From UHGV virus genome UHGV-1493261: a DNA stretch of 64,000 bases. One strand, written 5' to 3'. Made by a program: the position numbers and the translations under genes. Origin of the DNA: a virus. Positions 13,060 through 36,105 of this stretch are shown one piece after another. The notes under the pieces were generated by a model that saw only the letters and a program-made list of their open reading frames with translations, ran no database searches and was not told the DNA's origin. Position 1 is the first letter of the stretch; every line of letters starts with the position of its first letter.

Positions 13060-13067
13060 GATAACAC

Positions 13068-17193: not shown

Positions 17194-17196
17194 TTC

Positions 17197-17240
17197 TATA
17201 ACTTTGGGCGGGGTATGATTACCCCGTCTATTTGAAATGC
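17197..17240 (+). promoter_or_regulatory. TATAAC / GC hairpin / ATTTGAAAT cassette
   Basis: TATAAC (17197-17202), hairpin GGGCGGGGTATGATTACCCCGTC (17206-17228), TATTTGAAATG (17229-17239), then AGGAACTATACCATG. Confidence 0.5.
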
Positions 17241-17252
17241 AGGAACTATACC

Positions 17253-17759
17253 ATGACCGATCAACAAATTCAAGATTTATTTTACCTCGTCCATGATAAG
17301 TCCCACATCATGCGCCCCGGTACTGTTTCCCCTGCCGTCCGTGATCTGGTGCAAGAATTGCGCGAACCACAGACGACCACACTTTATCGCGGGTTGCCTA
17401 AAGAGGACGTTGCGCGTTTAGAGATGATGTTTGAACGAGGCGACATGTTCCAGACATGGGATTCTTGCCTTAGCTTCAGTGAACTGAAGCATGTGGCCAA
17501 AAAATTTTCTAAATCGTACGGAACCCAAGCTGTTGCCCGCATTTGTTACAAACATCGAAACAGACTCCCGGAGGGGCTTAATGTCTATGGTTCTCTAGAA
17601 AAATTTGTGAACAAAGGCGATGAATCAGAAATGGATATGCTGGACTTGGCGTCCATGGAGAAAGAATGGATATTCTGCCAGCCTCGCGTCATACCAGTTT
17701 CAAGAAAAATGGCAACAGACGGGACGATGGTTTTTACCGTATCACTTGTTACTCTATAA
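17253..17759 (+). CDS. hypothetical protein
   Basis: Start at ATG 17253 with context AGGAACTATACCATG. Track start 17232 is a TTG inside the ATTTGAAAT element. 168 aa. Confidence 0.55.
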   Translation: MTDQQIQDLFYLVHDKSHIMRPGTVSPAVRDLVQELREPQTTTLYRGLPKEDVARLEMMFERGDMFQTWDSCLSFSELKHVAKKFSKSYGTQAVARICYKHRNRLPEGLNVYGSLEKFVNKGDESEMDMLDLASMEKEWIFCQPRVIPVSRKMATDGTMVFTVSLVTL

Positions 17760-17760
17760 C
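17732..17760 (+). promoter_or_regulatory. promoter-like element (TTTTAC-N17-TATAAC)
   Basis: TTTTAC 17732-17737 and TATAAC 17755-17760 with 17-nt spacer, inside the 3' end of gene 17253..17759, 5 nt before hairpin 17765-17786. Confidence 0.4.
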
Positions 17761-17764
17761 CCAC

Positions 17765-17796
17765 GGCGGGGTATGATTACCCCGCCCATTTGAAAC
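17765..17796 (+). promoter_or_regulatory. GC hairpin / ATTTGAAAC cassette
   Basis: Hairpin GGCGGGGTATGATTACCCCGCC (17765-17786) and CATTTGAAAC (17787-17796), then GAGACTATATCATG. Confidence 0.5.
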
Positions 17797-17810
17797 CAAG
17801 AGACTATATC

Positions 17811-22268: not shown

Positions 22269-22534
22269 GCACAAAGACTGTAATCGTGTGGGGAGTCGGT
22301 ATGGGGCGTTGTTGTCCTCACAAGACGATCACATTCACACAGGATGACCGTGTAGAAATCTCTCGCATCGAGACAGCCGAAGCACCTGTTGGGGATTCAA
22401 TGATCAGAACTCCGGTGTCCCGTGTGCAGGTATTGCGCCCAGTAGTTGAGGTCATTTGCGAAGATTGCGGACAGCGCGGCACCATGATGTTGGAAGAGAA
22501 TTCTGATGAAGAAATCGTGGTGAAAGGCTATTAA
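22265..22534 (+). CDS. small Cys-containing hypothetical protein
   Basis: 89 aa. ATGA overlap with the upstream gene. CC...CEDC pattern suggests a possible zinc ribbon. Confidence 0.4.
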   Translation: MSTKTVIVWGVGMGRCCPHKTITFTQDDRVEISRIETAEAPVGDSMIRTPVSRVQVLRPVVEVICEDCGQRGTMMLEENSDEEIVVKGY

Positions 22535-22624
22535 TTCCGCTTTATTCAATATGTTTTGTTAGTTAAACTGTAGTCCTCTTGTAGTGAACATGAAAGTAAA
22601 CATTAACCCAACGGAGAAATCCAG

Positions 22625-23031: not shown

Positions 23032-24750
23032 GTGACAGCATTCAACCAATATACCAAGGCGCTTGACGGCGTCGGACCAGTCAGCATAGACCGCATCAAG
23101 TCTCTTGCCACTGAGTTCTTCCCGTATGACACCGCCAACCCCGGCCAGATGGAATGCATCGTTGAAGCCATTGATGCCCTTGTGAATAAGAAATTCAAAC
23201 ACGTGATCATCGAGGCTCCGACTGGTGTAGGTAAATCCCTCATCGGCACTACCATCCATAACGTGCTTCGCCATTTGGTTCTTGAGCACAACCCGTATGG
23301 TCAGTTCCGCACGTCTATCACGACGCCGACCAAAGGTTTACAGGATCAGTATGCAGCAGAGAAAGCCGTGGCGATAGACATCCTGAAGGGCAAGAAGAAC
23401 TACCGTTGCCACATCAGTCCCGACCTATACTACAACGCCATTCAGTGCCGTATGGCATGCCGTGATGGCCACTGTAGTAAGAATCGTTGCCCATATGTTC
23501 AGGCGCGTCGACAGTGGACCGACGTCTCCTCCTTGCGCTGCACCAACGCCGCCATGATGGTGGAGATGTGCACGACGATCTGTATGAAGCCGGAAAACCG
23601 CGCCGATATGCTGATCCTTGACGAGTGTCATAAGATGCCCTCTACGCTCCTAGAGCATACTATCATGGAATACAACACAAAGGCTGTGGAAGGGCTGCTT
23701 ACGATCCCCGAGGGAGTGCCTATCGTGGAGACCATCAAGGATATCATCATCCGCACAGAGAACTATGAATTGGGCAAGCTGTATTCCCTGTCTGGTGAGA
23801 TGCATGCGATATTTGATGAACTGCACGGCAAGGTTGAAGCCCTGTTGGAAACTCTTGAGGAACTGGTAGAGGACGAGCGCCTGACTGAAGCCCAGGTGAT
23901 GAAGCTGTCTGATATTATTGATACTCTTCACAACCTCAGCGACTACTGTGGTATCATGGGGCAGACCAACGCCAGCACTTTCATCGTACAGGAGAAGGAC
24001 AAGGGTATGATTCAGTTCAAGCCTGTCATCGCCTCTGATGTATCCCAGTTCGGTCTGTTCCGCAAGGGTGACTACCACGTCCACATGTCGGCGACCATTT
24101 GTGGGATTGACTCGTACGCCCGGTCACTGGGTATCCGTGAGGGTGAGTACCACAAGATACAGATCGGCAACCCTATCCCGATTGAGAACCGGAAAGTCAA
24201 CTACATGCCCATCATGAAGATGACGGCGAACATGGGTGACTACGAGATGAAGAAGCTGGCTGAATACGTGGATGAGATTATCGCGTTCCACCCTGGACAG
24301 TCTGGCATCATTCACACAGTCAGTTATGACCGCGCCCTGGCTCTACAGAAGTTCAGTAAGTACCGGAATATGATTCACGTTCCTCGTACTCGTAAGGCTC
24401 TGATGGACATCATGGAACACGCGTTCAGGACGAAGACGCCTTGTGTCATCGCCAGTCCGGCCATGGAAGAGGGGTATGACTTCAAAGGCGATTATAGTCG
24501 ATTTCAGATCTTGATCAAGGTGCCATACGATTACCTTGGTGATCCTCTGGTGGCCCACGTCAACAGTGTGGACCCATCGGCGTACTTCAGGATGGCGGTA
24601 CTGCGTATCGTTCAGATGTGTGGGCGTTCTGTCAGGGGCGTGAATGACTGGGCTGCGACATACATCCTTGATTCTTCTTTTGAATCACTGATGATGCGCA
24701 ACCCAGAGTTCTTCCCCGCTTGGTTCACTGATGCCGTGTTTGAGGTTTAG
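23032..24750 (+). CDS. DinG/XPD-like Fe-S helicase
   Basis: GTG start after AGGAGGAA. Walker A EAPTGVGKS, DECH box (LILDECH), four-Cys cluster (C...C...C...C) between motifs. Confidence 0.7.
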   Translation: MTAFNQYTKALDGVGPVSIDRIKSLATEFFPYDTANPGQMECIVEAIDALVNKKFKHVIIEAPTGVGKSLIGTTIHNVLRHLVLEHNPYGQFRTSITTPTKGLQDQYAAEKAVAIDILKGKKNYRCHISPDLYYNAIQCRMACRDGHCSKNRCPYVQARRQWTDVSSLRCTNAAMMVEMCTTICMKPENRADMLILDECHKMPSTLLEHTIMEYNTKAVEGLLTIPEGVPIVETIKDIIIRTENYELGKLYSLSGEMHAIFDELHGKVEALLETLEELVEDERLTEAQVMKLSDIIDTLHNLSDYCGIMGQTNASTFIVQEKDKGMIQFKPVIASDVSQFGLFRKGDYHVHMSATICGIDSYARSLGIREGEYHKIQIGNPIPIENRKVNYMPIMKMTANMGDYEMKKLAEYVDEIIAFHPGQSGIIHTVSYDRALALQKFSKYRNMIHVPRTRKALMDIMEHAFRTKTPCVIASPAMEEGYDFKGDYSRFQILIKVPYDYLGDPLVAHVNSVDPSAYFRMAVLRIVQMCGRSVRGVNDWAATYILDSSFESLMMRNPEFFPAWFTDAVFEV

Positions 24751-25514
24751 TAACCCGCAACGAAGGACAGATGGCACTTGACATTCGGTTCCAACGACGT
24801 CACAGAAACCGTCATATTGTCCGTATCTTGGCTGAAGTCAATGGTGGCGAGAGGTTTGGTCTGAATATGGTTATAGACACTGTAGATCAGATCCTCGCCA
24901 CGATACCCTACCTTCCCATCGGTGTCTTGCCAATGACCCAGTGTCTCATCGTAGACATGCACTCTGAACTCGATCATATGGAAGAGTGCCTTGGGGATGT
25001 CCTTGAGTACGCTGGTGCCAACCACGGGAATCTCTATACTGGAATCATTGGAGTTCCCTTCATAGACCGAAGCCCATGCAAAGGTAGGATCACCCCCAGC
25101 AACAGGGGTTCGCTTCCAGTATTGGAATTCTGGGTTGCCCGAAGCGTTCTTCTGAAGTAGAATGACCTCACCACCTTTGAAGTTCGAGGTATCGATGTCG
25201 CCTCGCTGAAGTTCATCTGCTGGAGATCCAATAAATTTCCAACCTTCGCGATCCAGTAAAGACTTATAATAGTCGGTGAACACGTTGCTGTCTTCTGCAT
25301 CGTTGATGGCATCTTTGAGACCTTGGCCTGTCACCATCTCGTTGAGCTTCAACCACATGTTCTTGACAGCAGACGCTGCTGCGACTTGTCCAGCAGTCCC
25401 ACCTGCAGCATAATCATAGATGATATCTTCTGACTTGATAGCATCATAGATAGAGAGGAGCAATTGCTCAATCTGCGGGGCGGTGAGACTGAAACGATAT
25501 GCGCGGGGTGCCAT
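24747..25514 (-). CDS. late-expressed virion structural protein (unassigned)
   Basis: Start at minus ATG 25514 (AGAGGA RBS) inside track ORF ending 25673. Exact TATAAATA late promoter 35 nt upstream on the - strand. 256 aa, Gly/Ser/Thr-rich. Confidence 0.55.
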   Translation of the reverse strand: MAPRAYRFSLTAPQIEQLLLSIYDAIKSEDIIYDYAAGGTAGQVAAASAVKNMWLKLNEMVTGQGLKDAINDAEDSNVFTDYYKSLLDREGWKFIGSPADELQRGDIDTSNFKGGEVILLQKNASGNPEFQYWKRTPVAGGDPTFAWASVYEGNSNDSSIEIPVVGTSVLKDIPKALFHMIEFRVHVYDETLGHWQDTDGKVGYRGEDLIYSVYNHIQTKPLATIDFSQDTDNMTVSVTSLEPNVKCHLSFVAGY

Positions 25515-25549
25515 AGTTTCATTCCTCTTTCTATAAAACCAGTTTGGGA

Positions 25550-25557
25550 TATTTATA
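25550..25557 (-). promoter_or_regulatory. T4-type late promoter TATAAATA
   Basis: Exact TATAAATA on the - strand, 35 nt upstream of the ATG at 25514. Confidence 0.6.
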
Positions 25558-25559
25558 TC

Positions 25560-26087
25560 ATGATAGAAATTTATTCTGACGGGGGTTCTAACCCGAAGAC
25601 CAACCAGGCCGCAGGCTGGGCATTTGTCATCAGGCCAATAACGGGTATGCAATGGAAGGTGTTCTTCGGCCATCTACCTCCCCCGTCCACCAACAATATC
25701 GCCGAGTTGTTGGGCGTGACCAACGCATTGAAGCTACTGTGGGCATTCTCAGGAAAGGGTGAGCGCAGAATACCAAAGGCAACAATTTGGTCTGACAGCC
25801 AATACACCATCAAGAGTGTCACCGAATGGCGAACGAAGTGGGAGTATCAGGGGTTCCCAGAAAAGAACGTTGAACTCATCAAAGATCTGTTCAGAATCTA
25901 TGATCTCGTTTGTTCAATCTGTGAAGTTGAACTAAAATGGGTTAAGGGTCATGCGGGGCACGAAGGCAACGAACTTGCCGATGACTGGGCCACAGCAGCC
26001 AAAAACGACAGCAACTTCCTGATTGAGAATGACAATATCTCGGTGAAGAAGGTTGTTGGATCTTTTGATGAATTTATCGGTATCTGA
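25560..26087 (+). CDS. RNase HI-type ribonuclease H
   Basis: Start at ATG 25560 inside track ORF 25464. IEIYSDGG...WSDSQY...WVKGHAGHEGNELADDWA match E. coli RnhA motifs (TDGS, TDSQY, VKGHAGHPENERCDELA). Confidence 0.85.
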   Translation: MIEIYSDGGSNPKTNQAAGWAFVIRPITGMQWKVFFGHLPPPSTNNIAELLGVTNALKLLWAFSGKGERRIPKATIWSDSQYTIKSVTEWRTKWEYQGFPEKNVELIKDLFRIYDLVCSICEVELKWVKGHAGHEGNELADDWATAAKNDSNFLIENDNISVKKVVGSFDEFIGI

Positions 26088-26098
26088 GGGCTATCATA

Positions 26099-26890
26099 AT
26101 GGGAATGAACTTCGTGGACAGAGGGGAGAATGTCGTCAAATATTTCACAGACGAAGATAACGAGCGTGTCATCAGCATCCTGCGTGATTGGATCCCTGCT
26201 CGTAAGAAGGCTCTGGCTGAAGGCACCAGGCTTCCAAAGATCCCCAACTATGTTGCTCTACAGGTCCAGCGCATCATCACCAAGATGAGCACCCGCTACA
26301 ACTATCGCGACTATCCCTTCCGTGAAGACATGGTCTCTGAAGCAATAGTCAACATATTGCGCTACCTCCACACATTTGACGTCGAACACATTGGAAAGAA
26401 AGGGAAGATCAACTTCTTCTCTTGGGTGACCATGTGTGCTGATCGATCATTTGCTCGTAAACTGAACATCGAAGAAGAGCACACGTACATTAAATTGCGC
26501 TCATTTGAAGAGGCGGGTGGGTTCGCAGGCCTGGCAGACGACCCCGACTTCCAACAAGAGATCTTTGTTGACGCGACAGGGATTGGTATGGACTTCCGTG
26601 AGCGTATCGGCAACTTTGAGAACAAAAAGGACGCTCAAAGACAGAAGGAGCGAGAGAAGGTGGAGGCAGCTCGTCTCGCAGAATCGAATAAAAAGATTGC
26701 GAAAGGCATACTTCAATACATGGCGCAGGCTAAGAATACGGTAACAGCGCAGGCCGAAGACAATTCAGATCAGGACTTTGGCAAAACCCAATTCAATCTG
26801 GAAGATGATATCTGTGCGATGGAACCAGATTGGGAAGCCCTCAAACAAAGATTAGAAGAACGGGAGAAAAAGAATAATGGCGATTGCTAA
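26099..26890 (+). CDS. gp55: late sigma factor (gp55-like), tentative
   Basis: 263 aa immediately upstream of gp47/gp46, as in T4. Weak resemblance to the gp55 core (F..Y...M...LH.FD spacing). Exact TATAAATA late promoters in the window make a gp55-type factor plausible. Confidence 0.45.
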   Translation: MGMNFVDRGENVVKYFTDEDNERVISILRDWIPARKKALAEGTRLPKIPNYVALQVQRIITKMSTRYNYRDYPFREDMVSEAIVNILRYLHTFDVEHIGKKGKINFFSWVTMCADRSFARKLNIEEEHTYIKLRSFEEAGGFAGLADDPDFQQEIFVDATGIGMDFRERIGNFENKKDAQRQKEREKVEAARLAESNKKIAKGILQYMAQAKNTVTAQAEDNSDQDFGKTQFNLEDDICAMEPDWEALKQRLEEREKKNNGDC

Positions 26891-27992
26891 AATCGGCGAT
26901 CTGCATATCGGGAGCCGTAATGGTTCCCGTTACGTTCGCGACTTCATCAAGAACTACCTCATCAATTATTTCATCCCTGAACTTGCCGACTCTGATATCA
27001 AAGAGGTCTGGCAGTTCGGTGATACGTTTGATGTCCGCAAATTCATGTACGGTCGTGACAAAGACTGGCTGAAGGATGAACTCACCCCTGCGTTGAAAGC
27101 GGCTGGTATCAAGTGGAATGGCATCGTGGGCAACCATGACATCACCCTGGAAGAGTCCAACCGCATCAACTGGCCATCCTACCTGAACGAACTCGACCCG
27201 GATGTGTACTGCTATTACAGCGAACCGACCGAAGTGATGATCGAGGGTGTCAAGACTCTGCTGCTGCCTTGGATCAACAAGGAGAACTATGATGCGTCTA
27301 TTAAAGCGATACAGGATACAGACGCCGAGTACTGTTTTGCGCATCTGGAGCTGGCGGGGTTCAAAATGTACCAGTCTTCTACTTGTGATCACGGTCAGAT
27401 CGACGTTGCGCTGCTTTCCAAGTTTACCAGGGTCGACACGGGGCATTTCCATACCCGTTCGATGGAAGGTAACATTCAATATATTGGGACTCCGTATCAC
27501 CTGAACTGGGAAGACTACAAAGACGGGACCAATCGTGGCTTCTATGTAGACGACATGCGTGGTGGTGAGATCTTTATCCCGAACGCCGAGCACCAGACGC
27601 TGTTCCGCTATGTGGAATATGATTACACCAAGTTGTCCTCTGATGAAGAAGGTAATTGGATCGACCCGGAATGGTTGAACACAGGCTTGGGTATTGAAGG
27701 GCAAATCGTTAAGGTTATTGTACAGAACCGTGACAATGCTAAGCATTATGAAAAGTTCTGTGATGCCATGAAGCGATGCAAGTGTATTGACTACAACTTC
27801 ATCGACCGGACGATTACTGTTGCTGCCGAGAAGGTTGAGGTCACCGAAGAGATGGTGGCGACCGATGCGGTGGAAGTCCTGAAGAAGGATATCCGCGCCG
27901 GGAACAACATTCAGCGCCCCGACAACGTCTGTAAACTGGCAGAGCACTTCTATAATGCTGCCCAACAACGCCTGAACAAACTGGATGCATAA
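26877..27992 (+). CDS. gp47: Mre11-like nuclease (gp47-like, SbcD family)
   Basis: Metallophosphatase motifs GDLHIG, GDTFD, GNHD. GGAGAA RBS. Followed directly by the Rad50-like gene. Confidence 0.85.
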   Translation: MAIAKIGDLHIGSRNGSRYVRDFIKNYLINYFIPELADSDIKEVWQFGDTFDVRKFMYGRDKDWLKDELTPALKAAGIKWNGIVGNHDITLEESNRINWPSYLNELDPDVYCYYSEPTEVMIEGVKTLLLPWINKENYDASIKAIQDTDAEYCFAHLELAGFKMYQSSTCDHGQIDVALLSKFTRVDTGHFHTRSMEGNIQYIGTPYHLNWEDYKDGTNRGFYVDDMRGGEIFIPNAEHQTLFRYVEYDYTKLSSDEEGNWIDPEWLNTGLGIEGQIVKVIVQNRDNAKHYEKFCDAMKRCKCIDYNFIDRTITVAAEKVEVTEEMVATDAVEVLKKDIRAGNNIQRPDNVCKLAEHFYNAAQQRLNKLDA

Positions 27993-30330
27993 CATGACTC
28001 AGAGCACAGATATCTTGACCAAATTTGGTAATCTTTTGAAGGAAGCCGACGCCCCGGTCGAGGTTGAAGTCCCATTTGAAGTGCGTAACGTTGTTACACA
28101 CAAACTGACCTTCCGCAAAGGCCGCGCCAAGAACTTCCGCTCCATCGGCAATCAGTTCATGGAGATTGATTATCAGCGCAACCCGGCCACCCTTGTCACT
28201 TCTGATGACAACGGCGCGGGTAAATCCACTATGCTGGTATGGCTGCTGTTTTTCGTACTGTACAACGACACGTACAGTAAGAAGGAGAAGAAGGCAGGCC
28301 TGGTTAACTCACAAAGCCGCAAGGAATGTGTGGGTGAGGTGGAGTTTGCCTGCCGTGGTAGCGAATGGAAGGTTCGCCGTGGCATTAAACCTGACTTTGT
28401 TGAAGTCTACCAGATGGTGGACGGCAAGTGGTTGAAGATCGATAACGAAGCAGCCAAGGCCGACATGAACAAGTACATCGTGAACCTCATCGGTGTAGAC
28501 CAGAAGATGTTTGAGAACTCTCTGGTGCTGGGTAAAGAGAAGTTCATTCCGTTTACGGAGATGTACACTGCCGACCGTCGCGCCATGGTGGAGACAATTT
28601 GGGACTTGGGCTTCTTCAGCCTGATGAACGAAGATGTCAAGGCCGCCATCAAAAAGGCAAATGCAACGCTGGACTCCATATCTAACGAATGCGCACTGAA
28701 GGTTATTGACCACACCAACAAGAAGACGCAGCTTCAGCAGATCGAGCAATCCAACGCCCTGATCCAACAGCAGTCGGCCGATATCCTTGTACAGCAACAG
28801 GAAGCCCTGAATTCCCTGGATGCTGACATCGCTTCCCAGAACGAAGAGCGCACCCGCCTCACTGCGGTTGAGTTAGAAGCCACCCAGGAAATGAAGACGG
28901 TAGAAAACCGCCTGCATGATGAATCCATGGTGGAGATCGAGGCTGTCAAGAAAGACTTTGATACCAAGATCCAGGCGGTGAAGGACGCCGCGCAGGACAA
29001 GGCTGACGATTATGAGCGCATCGAAGTGTCTACTGCGGAGCATGATCTTCAGGTCTTGCGTGACCGCGCCTTTACAGTGGCCGAACGCAAGAACACCCTG
29101 CTGACCGAGCGCAACACAAACCTGGACGCTCTGAACGCTGCTATTCAGCGCCGCCAGCAGGGTGAGAACTTCCGCATCAAGTTCCAGACCGAAATGGATG
29201 GCCACCAGTCGGCCATCAAGCGCTTCCACGACATGGGGACTTGCCCAACATGTACCCAACTGGTGTCTGATGACACCAAGGCGCGGATTGAGAGTGAGTA
29301 CAATCCTCAGATCCAGGAACTACAGTCGAAGTTAGATCAACTGGACAAAGTTACCGCCGATATCAATGTCCTGATCGATGACCACAAAGCCCAGGACGAC
29401 AAGTTGGTTGCTGACATTGCTGTGTTGGATGCTGAACTGGATGCAATGCGCAAGCAGGCCGACGAAATCGTTGACAACATCAAGCAGCTGCGCCGTGATA
29501 TTCAAGGTTTTCATGATGCCGCCACGATTGAGTGTAATTCGCTGAACCGTGAATGCCAACAGAAGATCCTTGACATCCGTAAGGCACTGAACGTTCGTTT
29601 TGAAGACATCACTGCGTCACTACAACAAACGCGAGAGAATGCCGTCAGCGGGATTAAAGCCGTCGATGATAAGATCGCCGAGCTGAAAGCCCGTCGTGCT
29701 CCTCTCGTGGCGTCTATTGCCGATCTGGAGCGTAAACTGGCTGTACAGCCAACACCTACCACCGACCTAGAGAACTCTATCGCTGCGTTGGAGGGTGAAC
29801 TGGAGGATCTATACCAGCGCCGCGAGGATGCCGACCAGGAACTCCAGGACTTACAGCACCTGCTGTTCTTCTTGAAAGATGACCAGACCAAGGCGCGTAT
29901 CATCGCCCTGTATCTGCCATTCCTCAATAGCAAGATCAACGAGTATCTTGAAGCCCTCAACATGTTCTTGGACATCGTTGTTGACGATACCTTTGAGATC
30001 ACCATGAGCGCAGCAGGCCGCAAAGGACAGAGTATCTTCTCCCTGTCTACTGGTCAGCGCAGTCGTCTGAACCTGGCTGTGACATTAGCCCTGCGCGATG
30101 TGGCTAACCTCAAGGCGTCTGTACAATGTAACCTGTTCGTGCTGGACGAGATCCTTGAGAACATGAGCGAGCGCGGGGTGCAGGAATCGGTTGAGATGTT
30201 GAAGCATAAGTTCGGCGGGAACAACCTGTTTGTCATCAGCCAGCGTGAGCAGGAGTTCCAGGAATACTTCCAACACAATATTCGCTATGGCCTGCGCAAC
30301 GGCCTGACCGAAGTTATCAAGAAGGATTGA
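27985..30330 (+). CDS. gp46: Rad50-like ATPase (gp46-like, SbcC family)
   Basis: Walker A DDNGAGKST, long coiled coils, CPTC zinc hook, signature LSTGQRSRLNLA, Walker B FVLDE. Alternative start at ATG 27994. Confidence 0.85.
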   Translation: MHNMTQSTDILTKFGNLLKEADAPVEVEVPFEVRNVVTHKLTFRKGRAKNFRSIGNQFMEIDYQRNPATLVTSDDNGAGKSTMLVWLLFFVLYNDTYSKKEKKAGLVNSQSRKECVGEVEFACRGSEWKVRRGIKPDFVEVYQMVDGKWLKIDNEAAKADMNKYIVNLIGVDQKMFENSLVLGKEKFIPFTEMYTADRRAMVETIWDLGFFSLMNEDVKAAIKKANATLDSISNECALKVIDHTNKKTQLQQIEQSNALIQQQSADILVQQQEALNSLDADIASQNEERTRLTAVELEATQEMKTVENRLHDESMVEIEAVKKDFDTKIQAVKDAAQDKADDYERIEVSTAEHDLQVLRDRAFTVAERKNTLLTERNTNLDALNAAIQRRQQGENFRIKFQTEMDGHQSAIKRFHDMGTCPTCTQLVSDDTKARIESEYNPQIQELQSKLDQLDKVTADINVLIDDHKAQDDKLVADIAVLDAELDAMRKQADEIVDNIKQLRRDIQGFHDAATIECNSLNRECQQKILDIRKALNVRFEDITASLQQTRENAVSGIKAVDDKIAELKARRAPLVASIADLERKLAVQPTPTTDLENSIAALEGELEDLYQRREDADQELQDLQHLLFFLKDDQTKARIIALYLPFLNSKINEYLEALNMFLDIVVDDTFEITMSAAGRKGQSIFSLSTGQRSRLNLAVTLALRDVANLKASVQCNLFVLDEILENMSERGVQESVEMLKHKFGGNNLFVISQREQEFQEYFQHNIRYGLRNGLTEVIKKD

Positions 30331-30332
30331 TC

Positions 30333-30497
30333 ATGAACTACGAACAAATTAAACTCGCAATCCTGGTCTTTGCATGCATCATTGACATCGTTGCGTTTTC
30401 TCGTGAAGTCGAAAGGAAAAACTACCTGAAAGCACTGGGGTATCTCGGGTTCTCTGTCTGGTTCTGTTATCTACTTGCAGGTCAAATCCTGAAATGA
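30333..30497 (+). CDS. small membrane peptide (54 aa)
   Basis: ATG 30333 just after the gp46 stop. MNYEQIKLAILVFACIIDIVAF...LGFSVWFCYLLAGQILK: two hydrophobic segments. Stop overlaps the next ATG as ATGA. Not in track (under 60 aa). Confidence 0.4.
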   Translation: MNYEQIKLAILVFACIIDIVAFSREVERKNYLKALGYLGFSVWFCYLLAGQILK

Positions 30498-30823
30498 AAG
30501 TCGTCCACTTCAAGAAGGAGCCATATGACGTCTACATTGGTCGGCCTGGTAAATGGGGGAACCCGTTTGAGGTCAAAGACCATGGACGAGGCGTCTGTAT
30601 CGAACTGTTTGAGGACGACCTGTATGTGCGCCTGATTGAAGGGGATATCACTGAGGATGAACTCCTTGATCTTGACGGGAAGGTATTGGGGTGCTGGTGT
30701 AAGCCGCGCCCCTGTCACGGAGATGTTTACGTCAAAGTCATTGGTCGTATTAAACTATTCCGCAAGCTGGGTAAATCCTTTACCGAACACCTGAGACAAA
30801 CGTATGTCAGAAAACAAAGATGA
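30494..30823 (+). CDS. DUF4326-like protein
   Basis: GRPGKWGNPF ... LGCWCKPRPCHGD matches the DUF4326 signature (WGNPF ... CWC.P..CHGD). Confidence 0.55.
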   Translation: MKVVHFKKEPYDVYIGRPGKWGNPFEVKDHGRGVCIELFEDDLYVRLIEGDITEDELLDLDGKVLGCWCKPRPCHGDVYVKVIGRIKLFRKLGKSFTEHLRQTYVRKQR

Positions 30824-31088
30824 AATTCAGGAATCCTGTGACATTGCTGTGGAGATATGGAATCGCAGGAATCCTCATTACCAAGTGACCGTCACTCTGA
30901 ATCGTTATCTTGAGCAGGGCGGCCTGATTGTGGTTGATGCTGTACTCGCTTTCAACAAGTACCAAGATATGCAGATCCTGGACGGCAACTTTACCGTCGC
31001 GACCAAGACGGCATGGGATGACCCTCTACAGTTCGTCTATGGCTGGCTGGAGTGTATCGAGGAATCCTACCACCTCATCTACGAATGA
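30804..31088 (+). CDS. hypothetical protein
   Basis: 94 aa. Overlaps the upstream gene by 20 nt. Terminator at 31095-31129. Confidence 0.45.
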   Translation: MSENKDEIQESCDIAVEIWNRRNPHYQVTVTLNRYLEQGGLIVVDAVLAFNKYQDMQILDGNFTVATKTAWDDPLQFVYGWLECIEESYHLIYE

Positions 31089-31094
31089 GGCTGA

Positions 31095-31129
31095 AGGGCA
31101 CTAAATATCACGTGCCCTTTATCTTTTAA
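31095..31129 (+). terminator. rho-independent terminator
   Basis: AGGGCAC / 10-nt loop / GTGCCCT then TTATCTTTT. Confidence 0.55.
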
Positions 31130-31184
31130 CCCCTGTCAGGAGGCTCAATCGAGCTGCAAGTCGACAAACATAAGGAACGCCATC

Positions 31185-31799
31185 ATGACGATGACAACGT
31201 TGAAGGCCATGGCCTTGTCCGTGACCTTTACCATTGCCAGCGGGAATGTGCACGCTTCCCAAAATACAAGTCAATGTGGTTATAATTTCTCCGAGCAACA
31301 ACTTAATACGATGGCAACCGCCTATCACGTAGGCAAGACACAAGATCTTGGCTACACTCTGGCCGCCATATCTTGGCGAGAGAGCCGCGCTGGTGAAGAT
31401 GTAGTGTCAATGCGATACGGCCTCAAGGCGGCCAACATGGGAGCCTTTCAGAACAAGGTGAAGACAGTTGGTGATCGCGAAGGTTGTAAGAATCGCAAGT
31501 GCTATGCCAATGTCGCCATAAAGTTGCTGACCGACCAAGAATATGCCGCGCAAGCCGCCCTCGATGAGATGCAGTTCTGGCTGACCTATCACAATCAGAA
31601 TATCCGCAAATCCCTCTCCTCTTACAATGCTGGCTTCGCCCGTAATCCTGCATCGAACGCTTATGCTGCCGACGTCGTGAAGAAAGCTAAATATCTTCAG
31701 AAATGTGTGTCTTTCGAAGGCCGGACCATCTCCGAGGTAGATCCTCAGGTGATCGCCATGAACAAGCACACAATAGAGAAACTGAAGAGGACAAGATAA
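31185..31799 (+). CDS. exported protein, possible lytic transglycosylase-like
   Basis: Signal peptide MTMTTLKAMALSVTFTIASGNVHA. ISWRESRAG ... GAFQ ... SYNAG loosely resemble SLT motifs (ES...GA.GLMQ, AYNAG). AAGGAA RBS. Confidence 0.45.
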   Translation: MTMTTLKAMALSVTFTIASGNVHASQNTSQCGYNFSEQQLNTMATAYHVGKTQDLGYTLAAISWRESRAGEDVVSMRYGLKAANMGAFQNKVKTVGDREGCKNRKCYANVAIKLLTDQEYAAQAALDEMQFWLTYHNQNIRKSLSSYNAGFARNPASNAYAADVVKKAKYLQKCVSFEGRTISEVDPQVIAMNKHTIEKLKRTR

Positions 31800-32437
31800 T
31801 GAACATCACTCCATCTCAGGCCGGATATGAACATATCTTGGTCTTCATTGCTCTACAGGGTGCGAAGGAAGGCATCATCGTATCCGAGTACTCAGGCACG
31901 GTTCGCCTTGCTGATTATGTCGCACCGGAGGCATTTATCAAGAAGTGTATTGACGCATGGTGCCTCTATGCCCTCAGCACATACCCTGCTCCTCCTGATG
32001 GCGAGCTGTTGTTTACTGTACCGACTCCAGCTGCTGGCGATACGGACGCGATCTTTGCCGATATGCTGGCCAAGGGGTATCTGGTGTATGACCTCACCCA
32101 CGATGTCTACTCCTTTACTTCGCTGAACACCGTGTTTGGATTCACCATCACATCTGAAGCCAACATCCCTGACTGGGGTATCTTGGCATGGGGTGTTGAC
32201 GGCCTGGGTGCAACCTACGCATCTTCTGACGTCGGTGCAGTTCTGATTGATGAGGGTGTCACCATGGAGCAGTACCTTGCCCAGTTCCCTCAGCACAATA
32301 TCACAGGCAGCGACATCATTTTGGTCCAGCCTGGCGCTATCGCTCTCCCCCGTTTGGTGGGTGGATGGAATCCTCGGCTGAAGGACATCATCGCAGGTAT
32401 TCGATCCCACATTCCGGTTGTGAATCCGACGCCGTAA
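31799..32437 (+). CDS. hypothetical protein
   Basis: Start at ATG 31799 (GAGGA RBS, TAATG overlap) inside track ORF 31703. 212 aa. Confidence 0.5.
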   Translation: MNITPSQAGYEHILVFIALQGAKEGIIVSEYSGTVRLADYVAPEAFIKKCIDAWCLYALSTYPAPPDGELLFTVPTPAAGDTDAIFADMLAKGYLVYDLTHDVYSFTSLNTVFGFTITSEANIPDWGILAWGVDGLGATYASSDVGAVLIDEGVTMEQYLAQFPQHNITGSDIILVQPGAIALPRLVGGWNPRLKDIIAGIRSHIPVVNPTP

Positions 32438-32451
32438 AAATAATTCAATAA

Positions 32452-32478
32452 AAGGGGCTTTCGCCCCTTTACTTCTTC
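32452..32478 (+). terminator. rho-independent terminator
   Basis: AAGGGGC / TTTC / GCCCCTT then TACTTCTTC. Confidence 0.6.
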
Positions 32479-32544
32479 AATATCCTTCCCTATACTTCAT
32501 TCCATAAGCAGTACGACACCAACTTGAAAAGCAGGAACTATATC

Positions 32545-32862
32545 ATGACACAACTCAAGAACTTCACAGCCGATGACATGTTTGCCTTCCAGGGTGCTGA
32601 GCACTTTGCTGACGGCTCCGTACCTCGCATCTACTACTTCTCCGACGAAGAGATGGAAGCGTTCTTCGACCTGATGGAAAAGGACTACGAACCAGGCGAC
32701 TTCGTTTATATCATCCATCACGCTGAAGGACTGACCTTGGGTTGGACGGCCAACAACGAACCAGAAGAAGTAAACTTCCCTGAAGGTATCATGTCAGAGC
32801 GCGTCGAATATCTACTGGAAGCCCTGGACCCCACACCCTCCCGCTCTGGGCGATGTCTGTAG
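32545..32862 (+). CDS. hypothetical acidic protein
   Basis: Start at ATG 32545 with context AGGAACTATATCATG. 5' leader homologous to that of gene 46262. Confidence 0.5.
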   Translation: MTQLKNFTADDMFAFQGAEHFADGSVPRIYYFSDEEMEAFFDLMEKDYEPGDFVYIIHHAEGLTLGWTANNEPEEVNFPEGIMSERVEYLLEALDPTPSRSGRCL

Positions 32863-32954
32863 CCCAAGTTCAAAAATAAGATAAGGGGGCTGACGCTCCC
32901 TTTTGGTTTCGCTAATTAGAAGAAACCGCCGTTAATTCAGTCAGGAGATATAAA

Positions 32955-35669
32955 ATGTCAAAGCTAAGTTTCCTCCAGTTCATGCAGGAAAGAGATCAGT
33001 TGGACGAAGCGTTCAACTCCGCTCCGTATGAGCTGACTATGGGTAAGAAGAACGCAGGCGATGTGTTCTTCACCTTCGTCGACGAAGATGAAAAGGAATA
33101 CCGTATTCAGTTCTATACCCCTCAGGGGCTGGGCAAGAGCGTTCGTCAGGTTTTCATCGGTCAGAAGCGCGGCTCCGTCTATCCTGACGCCATCGCTCGC
33201 TTCAAGAACCCAATGCGCGTTATCGCTTCCATGATCGAAGCGACCAAACAATTCATGGCGACTCCTCTGGGCAAGACCATCGATGGCTTTGCTGTCAACT
33301 TCTCGAAGAAAGCGCTGGATCGCGGTATGACCCTAATTCCTAAGATCATCCGCCAGTCCGGCCTGAAACAAAAACTGAATGTCATGGACCTGACCTACGC
33401 GCCTGTCCCTGACCGTGGTTATGTGTGGCTGGTCCGCAAGGGTAAAGATCCGGCTCAGGTATTCGACGGTCCGAAGATGCAGGGTATCACCTGGGATGAT
33501 CCAGACAAGGTCGGCGACGTTCCGGTTCAGAATAATACTTCGGATGTGGGAGTTGGGGCTGGTTCTTCTGAAATCGAAGTCAACCGCGAGTGGTACAACA
33601 GCTCGGACACTGGTCTGGAGTTGAAGAGCGGGCGAGACCCGATTCGTGGAAACTACGTCCGCCTGATAAGCGGTTCGAAAGAAGTAGCCGCATTCTATGG
33701 TTATGATTTTGACAAATATCCAGACGGGACTGAGGTATCTTGGAATATGAAGCGCGGCTTCACCAACCAAGACTTGGTCGGTGCGTCCATGACCAAACAG
33801 AAGAAAGGCATGTACGATCAGTACACTTTCAAGAAAGGTGCTCAGATAATTCTGGTGGTGGACGTTGACACCAGCAATGACACCAGCAATGACACCAGCA
33901 ATGACAACGGTTGGAAACTCACAAAAGCCGATGCCACTCAACCAATGTTAGTATGGGCGGGGAAAGAAAAAGGTCGCTTAGTCACGGCAAATATCGCTCC
34001 CCACTACAATGAGCCGGGCGTGTATGTTGGCGCATACATGAATGAGAAACCTGTGCGTGGGCAAAGTGCTGATTTCATTGCTCGTCAGTTGAAATTACCA
34101 CAAGTCCCTATCAGTATCCTGAATGATTTCACCACGGCGTCCACAAAATTTTGGAAAGGTTCTCAGCAGAAGTCCGCGCCAGCTGACTCTAACACCACAA
34201 TCGGGGCAACCAGTATCGATCAATTGCGTGACAGCGGTTTCATCGCTCGTGTTCTGGGTATCATTGATGCCAACATTGACCAGAAAGCAAGCCATCTCCC
34301 AGGGGAAAGCATTAAGAAGATCGGACAGGCACGTTATCAAACTAAAGGTGGTCTGGTGATCATCGTCAGCTTCGATTCAGTCGATGGCAAGAATCTGACC
34401 TACAACGTGTTCTCTGAAATCGAAACTCAGCCTGGTGTCATCTCTGGCGATGCTCGTCTGGTGGCAAACAAAATCATGGAAACGATCACACACGTGGCCA
34501 AACATCAGTACACTGGCAAATGGGAAATTAGCGCAGTGCCAACAAGCGCTCCATACCCTATCAAAGCCATTCGCCGTTCTCGGGGCTGGGGTTATGTGGA
34601 AACCGCAAACTGGACTCTGAAAGTGTCCGACGCTGTCCTGAATCGTGTGAAGCCAGGGAACACTGCTCTGCTGGAACTCATCAAAGAACCTCCTCGTGGC
34701 AAGCACCTGCTGGTAATCATCCCAGAGAAGGGCGACAAGACCCTGATGCTGAAAGATCGTATTAGCGGGGCCATCTATGGTTCTATCGACCTGAATGCCC
34801 AGGGTGCTGATATGGTCAACTCTGGAACCCTGAAGATGCCACGCAACGCCATGGTGTTTGGCGAGACTGTCAACGGTATGTCTATCACTTGGTCTGGAAT
34901 CAATTTCCCGAAAACTGGGAAGTATGATGGTGCTGTATTGACCACGAATGTGACCTATTACTACGACAAAGGAAAAGTCGCGTTCACACCGATGATCTCC
35001 CAGAAAGGGCGGCTGCTGAACAATCCGAAGACATATGAACTTCCTTTGAATAAAGACATTGTTCAGGCATTGATCGATGAAATTTCTTCTAAAATGGAAA
35101 TGATATCTCGGAATATGCAAACTCTGAAAAGCACGTCGCATAATCCGAAACAAGTATTTTTGGACGACATTTCTGTTGACAACAACGGTTCAGTCCTTTG
35201 GCGCGGGTACGACATGGCGGATCGCCGCACTAATGATTTTATGTTGGGTATCCTGTCCAAAGAAACCGAGAGACTGGAGAAAGAGTCGAGTACTGCGAAG
35301 AAGACTGGTGCCGACCTTGCGGCATACGCCGACTCCATCCGCGACAACGCACCAAAAGGTCGCGACCTGGATTGGCAGATCTATGCAAGCCGTGATGGTC
35401 AGACTCTGAACGTGGACTGGGATATCACCTTCCGCCGCAACACAACTGAAGGGGCATATCGCGAGTTCAAAGCTCAGATTGACCGCGCCAACCAGTACCT
35501 GCAGACTCTGTACCGGGATGCGAAGTCCAAGGGTTACAACCCGACTGAACCAAACCTGATGACTCTGGCTAGCGCCCAGCAGTCTGACCAGTGGTCACAA
35601 GACAACGGGGAAAGCGCATACAGCGAGTACGAGCAGTCCCTGGGTGGAAACATGCAGATCAAGATCTGA
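32955..35669 (+). CDS. large hypothetical protein (904 aa) with internal DTSN tandem repeat
   Basis: AGGAGA RBS. No recognised catalytic motif. Perfect 12-nt x3 DNA repeat at 33867-33902 encoding (DTSN)3. Confidence 0.7.
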   Translation: MSKLSFLQFMQERDQLDEAFNSAPYELTMGKKNAGDVFFTFVDEDEKEYRIQFYTPQGLGKSVRQVFIGQKRGSVYPDAIARFKNPMRVIASMIEATKQFMATPLGKTIDGFAVNFSKKALDRGMTLIPKIIRQSGLKQKLNVMDLTYAPVPDRGYVWLVRKGKDPAQVFDGPKMQGITWDDPDKVGDVPVQNNTSDVGVGAGSSEIEVNREWYNSSDTGLELKSGRDPIRGNYVRLISGSKEVAAFYGYDFDKYPDGTEVSWNMKRGFTNQDLVGASMTKQKKGMYDQYTFKKGAQIILVVDVDTSNDTSNDTSNDNGWKLTKADATQPMLVWAGKEKGRLVTANIAPHYNEPGVYVGAYMNEKPVRGQSADFIARQLKLPQVPISILNDFTTASTKFWKGSQQKSAPADSNTTIGATSIDQLRDSGFIARVLGIIDANIDQKASHLPGESIKKIGQARYQTKGGLVIIVSFDSVDGKNLTYNVFSEIETQPGVISGDARLVANKIMETITHVAKHQYTGKWEISAVPTSAPYPIKAIRRSRGWGYVETANWTLKVSDAVLNRVKPGNTALLELIKEPPRGKHLLVIIPEKGDKTLMLKDRISGAIYGSIDLNAQGADMVNSGTLKMPRNAMVFGETVNGMSITWSGINFPKTGKYDGAVLTTNVTYYYDKGKVAFTPMISQKGRLLNNPKTYELPLNKDIVQALIDEISSKMEMISRNMQTLKSTSHNPKQVFLDDISVDNNGSVLWRGYDMADRRTNDFMLGILSKETERLEKESSTAKKTGADLAAYADSIRDNAPKGRDLDWQIYASRDGQTLNVDWDITFRRNTTEGAYREFKAQIDRANQYLQTLYRDAKSKGYNPTEPNLMTLASAQQSDQWSQDNGESAYSEYEQSLGGNMQIKI
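33867..33902 (+). repeat. perfect 12-nt x3 in-frame tandem repeat (GACACCAGCAAT)
   Basis: Encodes DTSN-DTSN-DTSN inside the 904-aa ORF. Confidence 0.8.
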
Positions 35670-35676
35670 TCATCGA

Positions 35677-35694
35677 AAGCCCCTTCGGGGGCTT
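35677..35694 (+). terminator. terminator-like hairpin abutting late promoter
   Basis: AAGCCCC / TTCG / GGGGCTT directly followed by ATAAATAA (TATAAATA at 35694-35701). Confidence 0.45.
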
Positions 35695-35701
35695 ATAAAT
35701 A
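35694..35701 (+). promoter_or_regulatory. T4-type late promoter TATAAATA
   Basis: Exact TATAAATA on the + strand, 25 nt upstream of ATG 35726, abutting the terminator hairpin of the 904-aa gene. Confidence 0.5.
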
Positions 35702-35725
35702 ACTGAAATCCCCGAGGAGATTAAG

Positions 35726-36031
35726 ATGAAACCGTTTATCGAATATTTTAAAGAACAAGCCGCTAAACCTCAGACCCATGCTGGTGTCCAGGGTAAGACC
35801 GTATCCATCACCAAGCAAGCTGACGGCACCCAGTGGTGTTCCGGCGCTACCGTGACCCAGATCACTCCTGACAATCAGGCGGATGTCTACAACCTGGAGT
35901 TAACCAACGGCAACACCATCAAGGTGAAGCTGACCCCAGACCAGACTCACGGTATCTCCCAAGGTCAGGAAGTCGTTGCTGTCCATGACGGTTTCGAATT
36001 CTTCTTTGGCAAGCCTGCCGACAAAGACTAA
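35726..36031 (+). CDS. hypothetical protein, probably late-expressed
   Basis: 101 aa, GAGGAG RBS. Exact TATAAATA on the + strand 25 nt upstream. Confidence 0.5.
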   Translation: MKPFIEYFKEQAAKPQTHAGVQGKTVSITKQADGTQWCSGATVTQITPDNQADVYNLELTNGNTIKVKLTPDQTHGISQGQEVVAVHDGFEFFFGKPADKD

Positions 36032-36061
36032 GTGAAACCATCAAGATGACTCTTGATCATA

Positions 36062-36093: not shown

Positions 36094-36105
36094 GAGGACA
36101 ACATC

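Follow-up and report, generated by a model that had tools for sequence, protein, structure and literature searches.

Probable gp55-dependent late promoters in an Agtrevirus-like phage of the Ackermannviridae

Late promoters of T4 and Aeh1, and predictions for the Ackermannviridae

The late promoters of phage T4 carry the octamer TATAAATA at positions -13 to -6, and their activity depends on gp55, gp33 and gp45. Nolan et al. (2006, PMC1524935) reported a different late promoter consensus, CTAAATA from -12, for Aeromonas phage Aeh1, and found C only rarely at this position in the other four T4-like genomes studied. For the Ackermannviridae, the CBA120 paper (2011) stated that the late-promoter sequence of the family was unidentified, and the words promoter, transcription and sigma are all absent from a 2024 review of the family. 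A literature search for transcript-start mapping or time-course data found none for any Ackermannviridae phage. The late promoters given for Shigella phage AG3 (Anany et al. 2011) and for Dickeya phage LIMEstone1 (Adriaenssens et al. 2012; HE600015) are in-silico predictions, as are those described here.

The window analysed here is a 64,000-nt stretch of the virus genome UHGV-1493261, and it is ~98% identical to the complete genome of Escherichia phage A221 (Ackermannviridae, Aglimvirinae). Its gene model was obtained by mapping A221 proteins onto the window, followed by correction by hand. A greedy longest-ORF model was discarded because it got several genes wrong, gp47, RNase H and gp55 among them.

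An initial annotation of the window flagged four T4-like motifs. These are very probably late-gene promoters of an Agtrevirus-like phage that work in the T4 manner and depend on gp55. This reading is preferred because of the placement of the motifs, the late or virion character of the downstream genes, the presence of gp55, gp33 and gp45, and conservation across genera. The sites look like real and ordinary late promoters, and had been predicted in silico in the close relatives AG3 and LIMEstone1. The TATAAATA sites are a T4-looking minority within a larger set of TAAATA promoters, of which the following candidates lie in the window.

2003-2009, plus strand: CTAAATA, 25 nt before ATG 2035 of the UvsW helicase gene, overlapping the end of the preceding gene
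25550-25557, minus strand: TATAAATA, 35 nt before ATG 25514
35694-35701, plus strand: TATAAATA, 24 nt before ATG 35726
36068-36074, plus strand: CTAAATA, in the loop of the terminator hairpin 36061-36084, 31 nt before ATG 36106
40608-40614, plus strand: TTAAATA, in the 5' arm of hairpin 40610-40640, 29 nt before the endolysin ATG 40644
49175-49182, minus strand: CATAAATA, 34 nt before ATG 49140
50488-50495, minus strand: TATAATTA, one mismatch against the T4 consensus, 28 nt before ATG 50459 of gp26
51509-51515, plus strand: GTAAATA, in the 5' arm of hairpin 51509-51553, 38 nt before ATG 51554 of a RuvC-like resolvase gene
55274-55280, plus strand: TTAAATA, 32 nt before ATG 55313 of gp2, in the same 53-nt intergenic region as the 55294 site
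55294-55301, minus strand: TATAAATA, 34 nt before GTG 55259

A CTAAATA in a hairpin loop at 31101-31107 was considered as an eleventh candidate and dropped, there being no start codon within the next 50 nt.

Placement of the motifs

A scan of the window confirmed every motif coordinate in the initial annotation: exact TATAAATA occurs three times, at 25550-25557 and 55294-55301 on the minus strand and at 35694-35701 on the plus strand, and CATAAATA lies at 49175-49182 on the minus strand. The list was incomplete, with about six more candidates in the window, including the TATAATTA before gp26.

Taken alone, the count of TATAAATA is weak evidence, since shuffled sequences hold a mean of 0.67 copies and reach three or more in 4 of 100 shuffles. 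This count, together with the higher A+T content of intergenic DNA and the mild upstream enrichment of several A/T hexamers, is what would be expected if the motifs were functionless products of chance. Placement speaks strongly against chance. All three exact copies are intergenic and are followed by a same-strand start codon at a distance of 20-45 nt; the upstream zone so defined makes up 1.8% of positions in the window (binomial P = 5.9e-6). In A221, 4/4 copies are likewise intergenic and correctly oriented.

The hexamer TAAATA behaves in the same way, with 9 of its 21 window copies in this zone in the sense orientation and 0 in the antisense orientation (P = 4.5e-11). In A221, 23 of 54 copies lie in the zone (P = 1.9e-27), whereas control hexamers of the same composition are far less enriched there, with a share of at most 9/86. 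Seven groups of loci from related contigs were compared in the same way: in their structural modules the share of TAAATA copies that fall in the zone is 27-60%, compared with 7-14% for the pooled controls. Given, in addition, that the motif stays constant across genera at orthologous sites where adjoining bases change, a chance origin is highly improbable.

The core that is conserved across the family is TAAATA, a hexamer commonly preceded by C (aCTAAATA). CTAAATA is the commonest form in A221 (20 copies, 14 of them intergenic); TA or CA before TAAATA is less frequent, and yields the T4-like octamers flagged initially. A scan of Ackermannviridae genomes for the T4 octamer thus catches only a minority of late promoters, and a better model is a strand-aware search for TAAATA or CTAAATA 20-45 nt upstream of start codons.

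The motifs might instead be -10 elements of host sigma-70 promoters, early or constitutive and independent of gp55. TATAAA agrees with TATAAT at 5/6 positions, and TATAAT is itself enriched upstream of genes (6/44 copies in the window, 14/81 in A221), so that sigma-70-type promoters do exist in this genome. The TAAATA core, however, lacks the terminal T of the sigma-70 -10 hexamer. Nor is there any -35-like conservation among the 23 A221 sites, where each of 14 positions upstream of the hexamer holds at most 0.28 bits. A scan of positions 24000-37000 for a TTGACA-like -35 located 16-18 nt upstream of a TATAAT-like -10 returned 14 pairs, against 12.9 expected from shuffles, and none coincided with the 25550 or 35694 motif. 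The downstream genes, moreover, have virion, lysis and late-recombination functions and are not early, which leaves a sigma-70 origin improbable. In accordance with a T4-type start, the sixth base after the motif is preferentially A (15/23 A221 sites).

Distance to the start codon

The initial annotation held that the motifs lie exactly 35 nt upstream of their genes and that this fixed spacing marks a conserved late leader. Counted as nucleotides between motif and start codon, the gaps are 35 (ATG 25514), 34 (GTG 55259), 34 (ATG 49140) and 24 (ATG 35726), so the common figure was off by one; CATAAATA does precede the gp5-like gene, at a spacing that is close to that of the 25550 site without being identical to it (34 versus 35 nt). 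The plus-strand copy at 35694-35701 does stand ahead of gene 35726, at 24 nt. The gene starts on which two of these counts depend are supported by full-length PHROG profile matches (1-255/255 for 24747-25514 and 1-313/313 for 54315-55259) and are kept in relatives.

A leader of fixed length with a function of its own, added to late promoter activity, would account for three of the four sites lying at 34-35 nt and for 6 of the 23 A221 candidate sites lying at 34-36 nt. The variation in spacing contradicts it. The three similar gaps are not identical and the fourth is 24 nt; over the 23 A221 sites the spacing ranges from 23 to 42 nt, with a median of 32; and among orthologues of the RNase H-adjacent site it drifts between lineages, being roughly 31, 33, 35 and 39 nt by hand count. 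No shared sequence was seen when the leaders were read side by side, and the four leaders, when folded, were not significantly structured (z between -0.9 and +0.9); in the surroundings of the leaders, the terminator hairpin before 35694 was the only significant structure. A conserved late leader was accordingly rejected, and its probability is judged to be slight.

Genes downstream of the candidate promoters

The genes that adjoin the candidate promoters are given below.

24747-25514, minus strand: 255-aa protein, phrog_3833 (profile 1-255/255, E = 4e-160), served by the candidate promoter at 25550
25560-26087, plus strand: RNase HI gene, divergent from the preceding one (Pfam RNase_H from residue 3, E = 5e-25)
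35726-36031, plus strand: 101-aa gene, phrog_4048/33165
36106-36459, plus strand: DUF5856 gene, downstream of the CTAAATA at 36068
47076-47456, minus strand: gp25-like wedge protein
47530-49140, minus strand: gp5-like baseplate hub with a CHAP domain
49504-49653, minus strand: 49-aa ORF, phrog_9633
49653-50459, minus strand: gp26-like baseplate hub, 268 aa (Pfam T4_baseplate E = 1e-46; phrog_150)
54315-55259, minus strand: gp54-like baseplate tail-tube initiator (phrog_3629, 1-313/313, E = 2e-176)
55313-56017, plus strand: gp2 DNA end protector gene (phrog_429, E = 1.6e-67)

The proposed late or virion character of the minus-strand genes was supported: they encode the gp54-like protein, gp5 and gp25, and an orthologue of a LIMEstone1 virion protein confirmed by mass spectrometry. 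In LIMEstone1, gp54, gp5 and gp25 are confirmed structural proteins, as is ORF093, which is 92% identical to the product of 24747-25514 and is noted as a 'confirmed structural protein'. For the 101-aa gene, the product of the orthologue ORF080 (189 aa) has been confirmed in the virion, and the orthologue of the 36068 site lies upstream of ORF078, another 'confirmed structural protein'. Late expression and a place in the virion are probable for the products of 24747-25514 and 35726-36031. From the gene layout, gp5 and gp25 (47076-49140) probably form one late transcription unit. Together, the downstream genes parallel late functions of T4: gp54, gp5/gp25, gp26, gp2, endolysin, UvsW and resolvase.

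The back-to-back layout described initially for the 25550 motif and the RNase H gene is correct, with 2 nt between the end of the motif at 25557 and ATG 25560, and this compact divergent region is conserved family-wide. As an aid to annotation, the candidate promoters assign an orientation and a timing class to several genes without an assigned function. The start codons of four genes (gp54, gp26, RNase H and DUF5856), wrongly annotated in close relatives, are corrected as well.

Conservation and earlier predictions in relatives

At the orthologues of the 25550 site in 23 related loci, TATAAATA or TATAAGTA is kept while the flanks diverge; the loci with TATAAGTA form one large set, which is taken to be Kuttervirus. 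The CATAAATA of the gp5 site is invariant in 20 Ackermannviridae loci with diverged flanks. The 55294 motif is also conserved in 20 loci, and is replaced by TATAAGTA in LIMEstone1 only. The 35694 motif abuts the 3' arm of a terminator-like hairpin (35677-35694), and its orthologous sites read TATAAATA, CTAAATA or CTAATTA in the same place after the hairpin. These three forms thus interchange at one orthologous position.

The LIMEstone1 annotation contains 'putative late promoter' features orthologous to the sites at 25550, 35694, 36068, 40608, 49175, 50488, 51509, 55274 and 2003. Both the RNase H-adjacent site (68385-68390) and the 35694 site (59383-59388) are thereby covered. The 50488 orthologue reads TATAAATA there, and the 55274 site is conserved. 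In the gp54/gp2 region only the gp2-directed motif was annotated, because the gp54-directed copy reads TATAAGTA. For AG3, the gp54 and gp5 sites are published: Porf072 (tctttgccatttgtcaactcctataaata) is identical to window positions 55294-55322 on the minus strand, and Porf084 is the gp5 site at 49175. Porf072 is assigned there to gp2, whereas the motif actually points at gp54.

Comparison with T4 and Aeh1

The likeness to T4 lies in an identical octamer at three window sites, with one base different at the CATAAATA and TATAATTA sites, in a single -10-type element without a -35, and in the homologues of gp55, gp33 and gp45 encoded in the window. The candidate promoters, furthermore, serve baseplate, virion, lysis and late-recombination genes. 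Unlike in T4, conservation in the Ackermannviridae is limited to the final six bases, TAAATA, and C precedes them in 11/23 A221 sites. Most head and tail genes of the family carry CTAAATA, CTAAGTA or CTAATTA, and the T4 octamer is not the family consensus; T4 specificity is therefore not simply transferable. The general picture of late transcription in the T4 superfamily is unchanged by this result.

Aeh1 belongs to a different phage lineage. It is resembled in the CTAAATA that stands before the sheath, tube, scaffold, portal and capsid genes of diverged family members, and in the two window candidates of this form, at 2003 (UvsW) and 36068 (terminator loop). In contrast, the four flagged sites have A rather than C before TAAATA, and this A is kept across genera at three of the four.

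Late-transcription machinery and proposed mechanism

The window encodes counterparts of the three T4 late-transcription factors.

26099-26890, plus strand: gp55-type late sigma factor (phrog_234 'late sigma transcription factor', E = 3.4e-52)
52680-52925, plus strand: gp33-type late-transcription co-activator (PF16805 Trans_coact E = 8.5e-18; phrog_254)
4273-4941, plus strand: gp45-type sliding clamp (phrog_223 'DNA polymerase processivity factor', E = 1.1e-64)

The tentative initial assignment of 26099-26890 to a gp55-like sigma factor is supported by this profile match; in the A221 annotation the gene starts at the second ATG, 26105. The 263-aa product is very diverged, too much so for detection by a single sequence among PDB chains, where a search gave only spurious matches at E <= 1. 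Its homology is based on PHROG profiles and on tblastn, which matched gp55 genes of cyanophages and vibriophages at 25-36% identity. The gp33 product matches the T4 Gp33 chains 3tbi and 7d7d weakly. The gp45 product is 100% identical to an A221 protein annotated 'sliding clamp', and its match to Pfam gp45-slide_C (18.6 bits) falls below the cut-off. Coupling to the clamp is treated as an assumption, because no shared C-terminal clamp-binding motif was seen by eye in gp55, gp33 and the A221 DNA polymerase.

On the T4 model, the phage sigma factor gp55 would bind the core of the host RNA polymerase, which would then recognise the single -10-type element without needing a -35, with assistance from the co-activator gp33 and from the sliding clamp gp45 loaded on replicating DNA. 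Under the T4 rule, transcripts would begin about 6 nt past the final A of the motif, at ~25544, ~49169 and ~55288 on the minus strand and ~35707 on the plus strand. The predicted leaders are 19-30 nt long and would contain an ordinary ribosome-binding site. In the window, the T4-like and near-T4 forms would serve baseplate and virion genes grouped in small islands, which run antisense within the plus-strand block of replication genes; this position explains why every island would have a promoter of its own, set in a very short intergenic region between divergent genes.

Each site holds A or C across lineages, except that upstream of the 35726 gene, which switches class. A more elaborate scheme, which is considered unlikely, is that gp55 reads TAAATA while the two preceding bases sort the promoters into two site-specific classes that have persisted since the genera diverged. 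The T4-like class (TA or CA before TAAATA) might serve the antisense islands, namely the RNase H-adjacent gene, gp5 and gp54, and the Aeh1-like class (aC before TAAATA) might serve the head, neck and tail module. The two might differ in strength or timing. If this were true, the two classes, the hairpin-embedded promoters and the overlapping, face-to-face gp54/gp2 pair would make up a richer late programme than a single class with a single consensus.

Candidate promoters embedded in hairpins

The 3' arm of the hairpin at 40610-40640 contains the Shine-Dalgarno sequence of the endolysin gene, and the hairpin at 51509-51553 ends at the resolvase start codon. Both are strong (z = -4.1 for endolysin and -4.5 for resolvase) and occlude the ribosome-binding site or the start codon. 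A transcript begun 6 nt past the motif would lack the 5' arm of the hairpin at either gene, a geometry that fits a T4-type start. A comparable arrangement is described for the T4 genes e, 49, soc and I-TevI, in which a hairpin blocks translation of read-through transcripts, and a late promoter inside the hairpin gives rise to transcripts free of this block (Uzan and Miller 2010, PMC3014915).

In this respect the window genes for endolysin and resolvase, with a predicted promoter inside the hairpin, resemble T4 e and 49. The enzymes themselves belong to different Pfam families: T4 lysozyme as against a window muramidase with a peptidoglycan-binding domain, and T4 endonuclease VII as against a RuvC-like resolvase. 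Hairpin gating is not described in the available parts of the AG3 and LIMEstone1 papers, and in both phages the lysin hairpin is labelled simply as a terminator. Both hairpins are conserved among relatives, with wobble and compensatory changes.

Placement of the candidate late-promoter motifs

The window holds exactly three copies of the T4-type late-promoter 8-mer TATAAATA, at the coordinates given in the initial annotation, and the near variant CATAAATA is found upstream of the gp5-like gene.

Flagged motifs and the genes downstream
25550-25557, minus strand, TATAAATA; 35 nt to ATG 25514 of a gene with no named function (24747-25514; phrog_3833; LIMEstone1 orthologue ORF093)
35694-35701, plus strand, TATAAATA; 24 nt to ATG 35726 of a gene with no named function (35726-36031; phrog_4048; LIMEstone1 orthologue ORF080)
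49175-49182, minus strand, CATAAATA; 34 nt to ATG 49140 of the gp5-like hub protein with a CHAP domain (47530-49140), which gp25 follows
55294-55301, minus strand, TATAAATA; 34 nt to GTG 55259 of the gp54-like tail-tube initiator (54315-55259)

The count of TATAAATA is weak by itself (shuffle mean 0.67, with at least three copies in 4 of 100 shuffles). Its placement is more telling: all three copies are intergenic, in sense and 24-35 nt upstream of a start codon, which gives a binomial P of 5.9e-6 because the upstream zone used in the test (20-45 nt before a same-strand start codon) spans just 1.8% of strand positions. The complete genome of Escherichia phage A221 (Ackermannviridae, Aglimvirinae) was scanned as well; A221 matched 24000-32000 at 98.1% identity over the full query in a megablast search; other Agtrevirus-like phages, including Shigella phage AG3, matched at 93.8%. 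All four A221 copies are placed as in the window once the gp54 start is corrected. Judged from profile coverage, the annotation of Dickeya phage LIMEstone1 and conserved upstream starts, A221 annotation places the gp26, gp54 and RNase HI starts 50, 81 and 29 codons too far downstream.

The start codons of 24747-25514 and 54315-55259 are sound, with end-to-end PHROG profile alignments and starts kept in relatives. The compact divergence from RNase H also holds, the motif at 25550-25557 lying 2 nt away from the RNase HI ATG at 25560 (gene 25560-26087, plus strand); the Pfam domain of this ORF starts at residue 3. The GenBank note 'confirmed structural protein' stands on LIMEstone1 ORF093, ORF080, gp54, gp5, gp25 and gp26, with orthology established from loci of the 152,427-bp LIMEstone1 contig. 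The proposal that the minus-strand genes are late or virion genes is supported by gp54, by gp5/gp25 and by the confirmed structural orthologue of 24747-25514.

The 101-aa product of 35726-36031 matches just positions 1-100 of the 189-position phrog_4048, and LIMEstone1 ORF080 is 189 aa. As a short-form family, phrog_33165 (104 positions), exists beside phrog_4048, the product may represent a naturally short form rather than a truncated protein.

TAAATA as the family consensus

In A221, the sheath, tube, neck, scaffold, gp6, gp48, tail-spike and other structural genes are preceded by CTAAATA, not TATAAATA; CTAAGTA precedes the capsid gene and CTAATTA the portal gene. Of the 20 CTAAATA copies in A221, 14 fall between genes; intergenic DNA makes up 13% of this genome. 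For TAAATA in A221, 23 of 54 copies lie in sense 20-45 nt upstream of a start (P = 1.9e-27), and control hexamers of the same composition (n=14) place at most 9/86 in this zone. The window has 9 of 21 copies in the zone in sense and none in antisense (P = 4.5e-11). In the structural modules of seven locus groups, tested without a gene model, 27-60% of TAAATA copies fall in the zone vs 7-14% for pooled controls.

The base before TAAATA at the 23 A221 sites is C in 11, A in 6, T in 4 and G in 2, and no position upstream of the hexamer is informative. C is favoured two bases past the motif, and the sixth base past it, the T4-type transcript start position, is A in 15/23. CTAAATA is also the late-promoter consensus reported for Aeromonas phage Aeh1, whose gp55 is diverged, as is that of the window (PMC1524935). 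As a useful refinement, the T4 8-mer proves to be a minority form of a TAAATA element that is mostly CTAAATA.

Conservation across related phages

Among 23 related loci, the RNase H-adjacent site reads TATAAATA or, in one large group, TATAAGTA, between diverged flanks. The TATAAGTA group, in which the site lies upstream of the phrog_3833 orthologue, comprises loci L012-L019 and L025, which we take to be Kuttervirus. Before gp5, 20 loci with diverged flanks all retain CATAAATA; before gp54, LIMEstone1 alone departs from TATAAATA, reading TATAAGTA. Upstream of the 35726 gene, directly after a conserved hairpin, the site reads TATAAATA, CTAAATA or CTAATTA depending on the phage; CTAAATA and CTAATTA alternate likewise before the tail-tube gene. 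Because these forms replace each other at orthologous positions, the alignments indicate one element with a conserved core TAA(A/T)TA. A or G seems to be tolerated at the fourth hexamer base, since TATAAGTA replaces TATAAATA in L012-L019 and L025 and CTAAGTA serves the A221 capsid gene. Chance occurrence of the motifs is very unlikely given this conservation and the strand specificity of TAAATA in the window.

The gap to the start codon varies, from roughly 31 to 39 nt (manual count) across loci at the RNase H-adjacent site and 23-42 nt among the 23 sites of A221. The motifs of the initial annotation are real and their T4-type reading is well supported. Its spacing of exactly 35 nt is off by one, the gaps of the four flagged sites being 35, 34, 34 and 24 nt, and its fixed-length, conserved late leader is not supported.

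Locus L115 (IMGVR_UViG_3300045988_107072) shares ~99% identity with the window across neighbouring genes but carries a different segment directly upstream of the 35726 orthologue, where CTAATTA follows another hairpin and the preceding gene ends differently. This suggests a recombination junction right at the terminator/promoter.

Late-transcription machinery and earlier predictions

The window encodes homologues of the T4 late sigma factor gp55 (phrog_234, E = 3.4e-52), the co-activator gp33 (Pfam PF16805, E = 8.5e-18; weak matches to T4 Gp33 chains 3tbi and 7d7d) and the sliding clamp gp45 (phrog_223, E = 1.1e-64). The gp55-like assignment, initially tentative, is supported by this profile match and by tblastn, which matched gp55 genes of cyanophages and vibriophages (25-36% identity). 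The protein is very diverged, and a single-sequence search against PDB gave no genuine match.

Placement, conservation, gene identities and the presence of these three homologues make it well supported that the flagged motifs are T4-type late promoters. Sequence features, statistics, conservation, gene identities and the presence of the factors were established directly; the mechanism is drawn from T4: gp55-core polymerase would recognise the -10-type element with no need of a -35 element, initiation would be coupled to replication by gp33 and the clamp, and transcripts would start ~6 nt past the motif. Use of the sites as sigma-70 promoters is unlikely, because they have no -35 element, the core has no terminal T, a consensus scan of 24000-37000 gave no match on the 25550 and 35694 motifs, and the downstream genes are not those expected behind early promoters.

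As a feature this is ordinary, and earlier work on close relatives had predicted it. The AG3 paper (2011) describes homologues of gp55, gp33 and gp45 and, at up to one mismatch, 17 matches to TATAAATA. Among the entries of its Table S2 are Porf072, equal in sequence to the window gp54/gp2 site, and Porf084, the orthologous gp5 site with one base different upstream of the motif. There, TATAAATA of the gp54/gp2 region is assigned to gp2, whereas the motif points at gp54. The LIMEstone1 paper (2012) reports 33 late promoters. The LIMEstone1 GenBank record (HE600015) marks TAAATA hexamers at orthologues of nearly all candidate sites, including the RNase H-adjacent one, where LIMEstone1 equals the window over the 71 nt compared. 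The CBA120 paper described the family's late-promoter sequence as not yet identified. No transcript mapping was found in the literature after the CBA120, AG3 and LIMEstone1 papers, and the words promoter, transcription and sigma are all absent from a 2024 family review.

Further candidate promoters

Six candidates were absent from the initial annotation.

Additional candidate late promoters
50488-50495, minus strand, TATAATTA; 28 nt before the true gp26 start, ATG 50459 (gp26, 49653-50459); LIMEstone1 orthologue reads TATAAATA
55274-55280, plus strand, TTAAATA; 32 nt before gp2 (DNA end protector, 55313-56017), in the same 53-nt intergenic region as the gp54 promoter
2003-2009, plus strand, CTAAATA; before UvsW
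36068-36074, plus strand, CTAAATA; within the loop of the 36061-36084 terminator hairpin, 31 nt upstream of ATG 36106
40608-40614, plus strand, TTAAATA; before the endolysin gene
51509-51515, plus strand, GTAAATA; before the RuvC-like resolvase gene

Opposite-strand late-promoter motifs are paired in divergent intergenic regions of 50-53 nt at gp54/gp2 (window 55260-55312) and gp48/gp4 (A221 108731-108780, locus L002). Their predicted starts lie ~2-5 nt apart, and therefore each motif falls within the other's initial transcribed region; polymerase could hardly occupy both motifs of a pair simultaneously.

CTAAATA also lies in the loops of two terminator-like hairpins, 36061-36084 and 31094-31119, both on the plus strand. 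In the former, the 3' arm contains the predicted start; late transcripts initiated by the 36068 candidate would therefore avoid this terminator and cover the DUF5856 gene with ATG 36106 as its start codon. A221 annotation starts this gene at a downstream TTG. No gene start occurs within the 50 nt following CTAAATA at 31101-31107.

Hairpins at the endolysin and resolvase genes

Read-through RNA of the endolysin gene (Pfam Muramidase and PG_binding_1) is predicted to fold into a 13-bp hairpin at 40610-40640 on the plus strand (dG = -16.2 kcal/mol, z = -4.1), with TTAAATA in the 5' arm and part of the promoter sequence paired with the Shine-Dalgarno GGAGG in the 3' arm. Late transcripts from the predicted start would lack the 5' arm, and RNA beginning just past this position is unstructured on folding. 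The resolvase hairpin, at 51509-51553 on the plus strand (dG = -22.9 kcal/mol, z = -4.5), similarly has GTAAATA within the 5' arm and extends to the AUG; the stretch 51509-51556 shows no obvious Shine-Dalgarno sequence.

Both hairpins are kept in relatives, with variable loops and wobble changes in the stems; the endolysin hairpin is conserved in 19 Ackermannviridae loci, and the resolvase hairpin has a paired, compensatory insertion and an A-U pair changed to U-A. The same arrangement is documented for T4 genes e, 49, soc and I-TevI, whose early read-through transcripts are not translated, unlike those begun at a late promoter within the hairpin (PMC3014915). The endolysin case parallels T4 gene e (lysozyme), which is gated at the level of translation, and the resolvase case parallels gene 49 (endonuclease VII). 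As modelled, the geometry at both genes would lend independent support to the predicted start position. AG3 and LIMEstone1 annotation labels the endolysin hairpin merely as a terminator.

Gene layout

G+C is ~49% throughout the window. Most genes lie on the plus strand and serve replication and nucleotide metabolism, and baseplate and virion genes form a few minus-strand islands. By tblastn, no annotated A221 protein maps to ORFs in the stretches ~12625-14090, 17194-17810, 22269-22624, 36460-37980 and 39725-40640, 36487-37128 and 37050-37784 being two examples of such ORFs. Insertions (homing-endonuclease genes, for instance) could account for them, or genes that A221 annotation omits.
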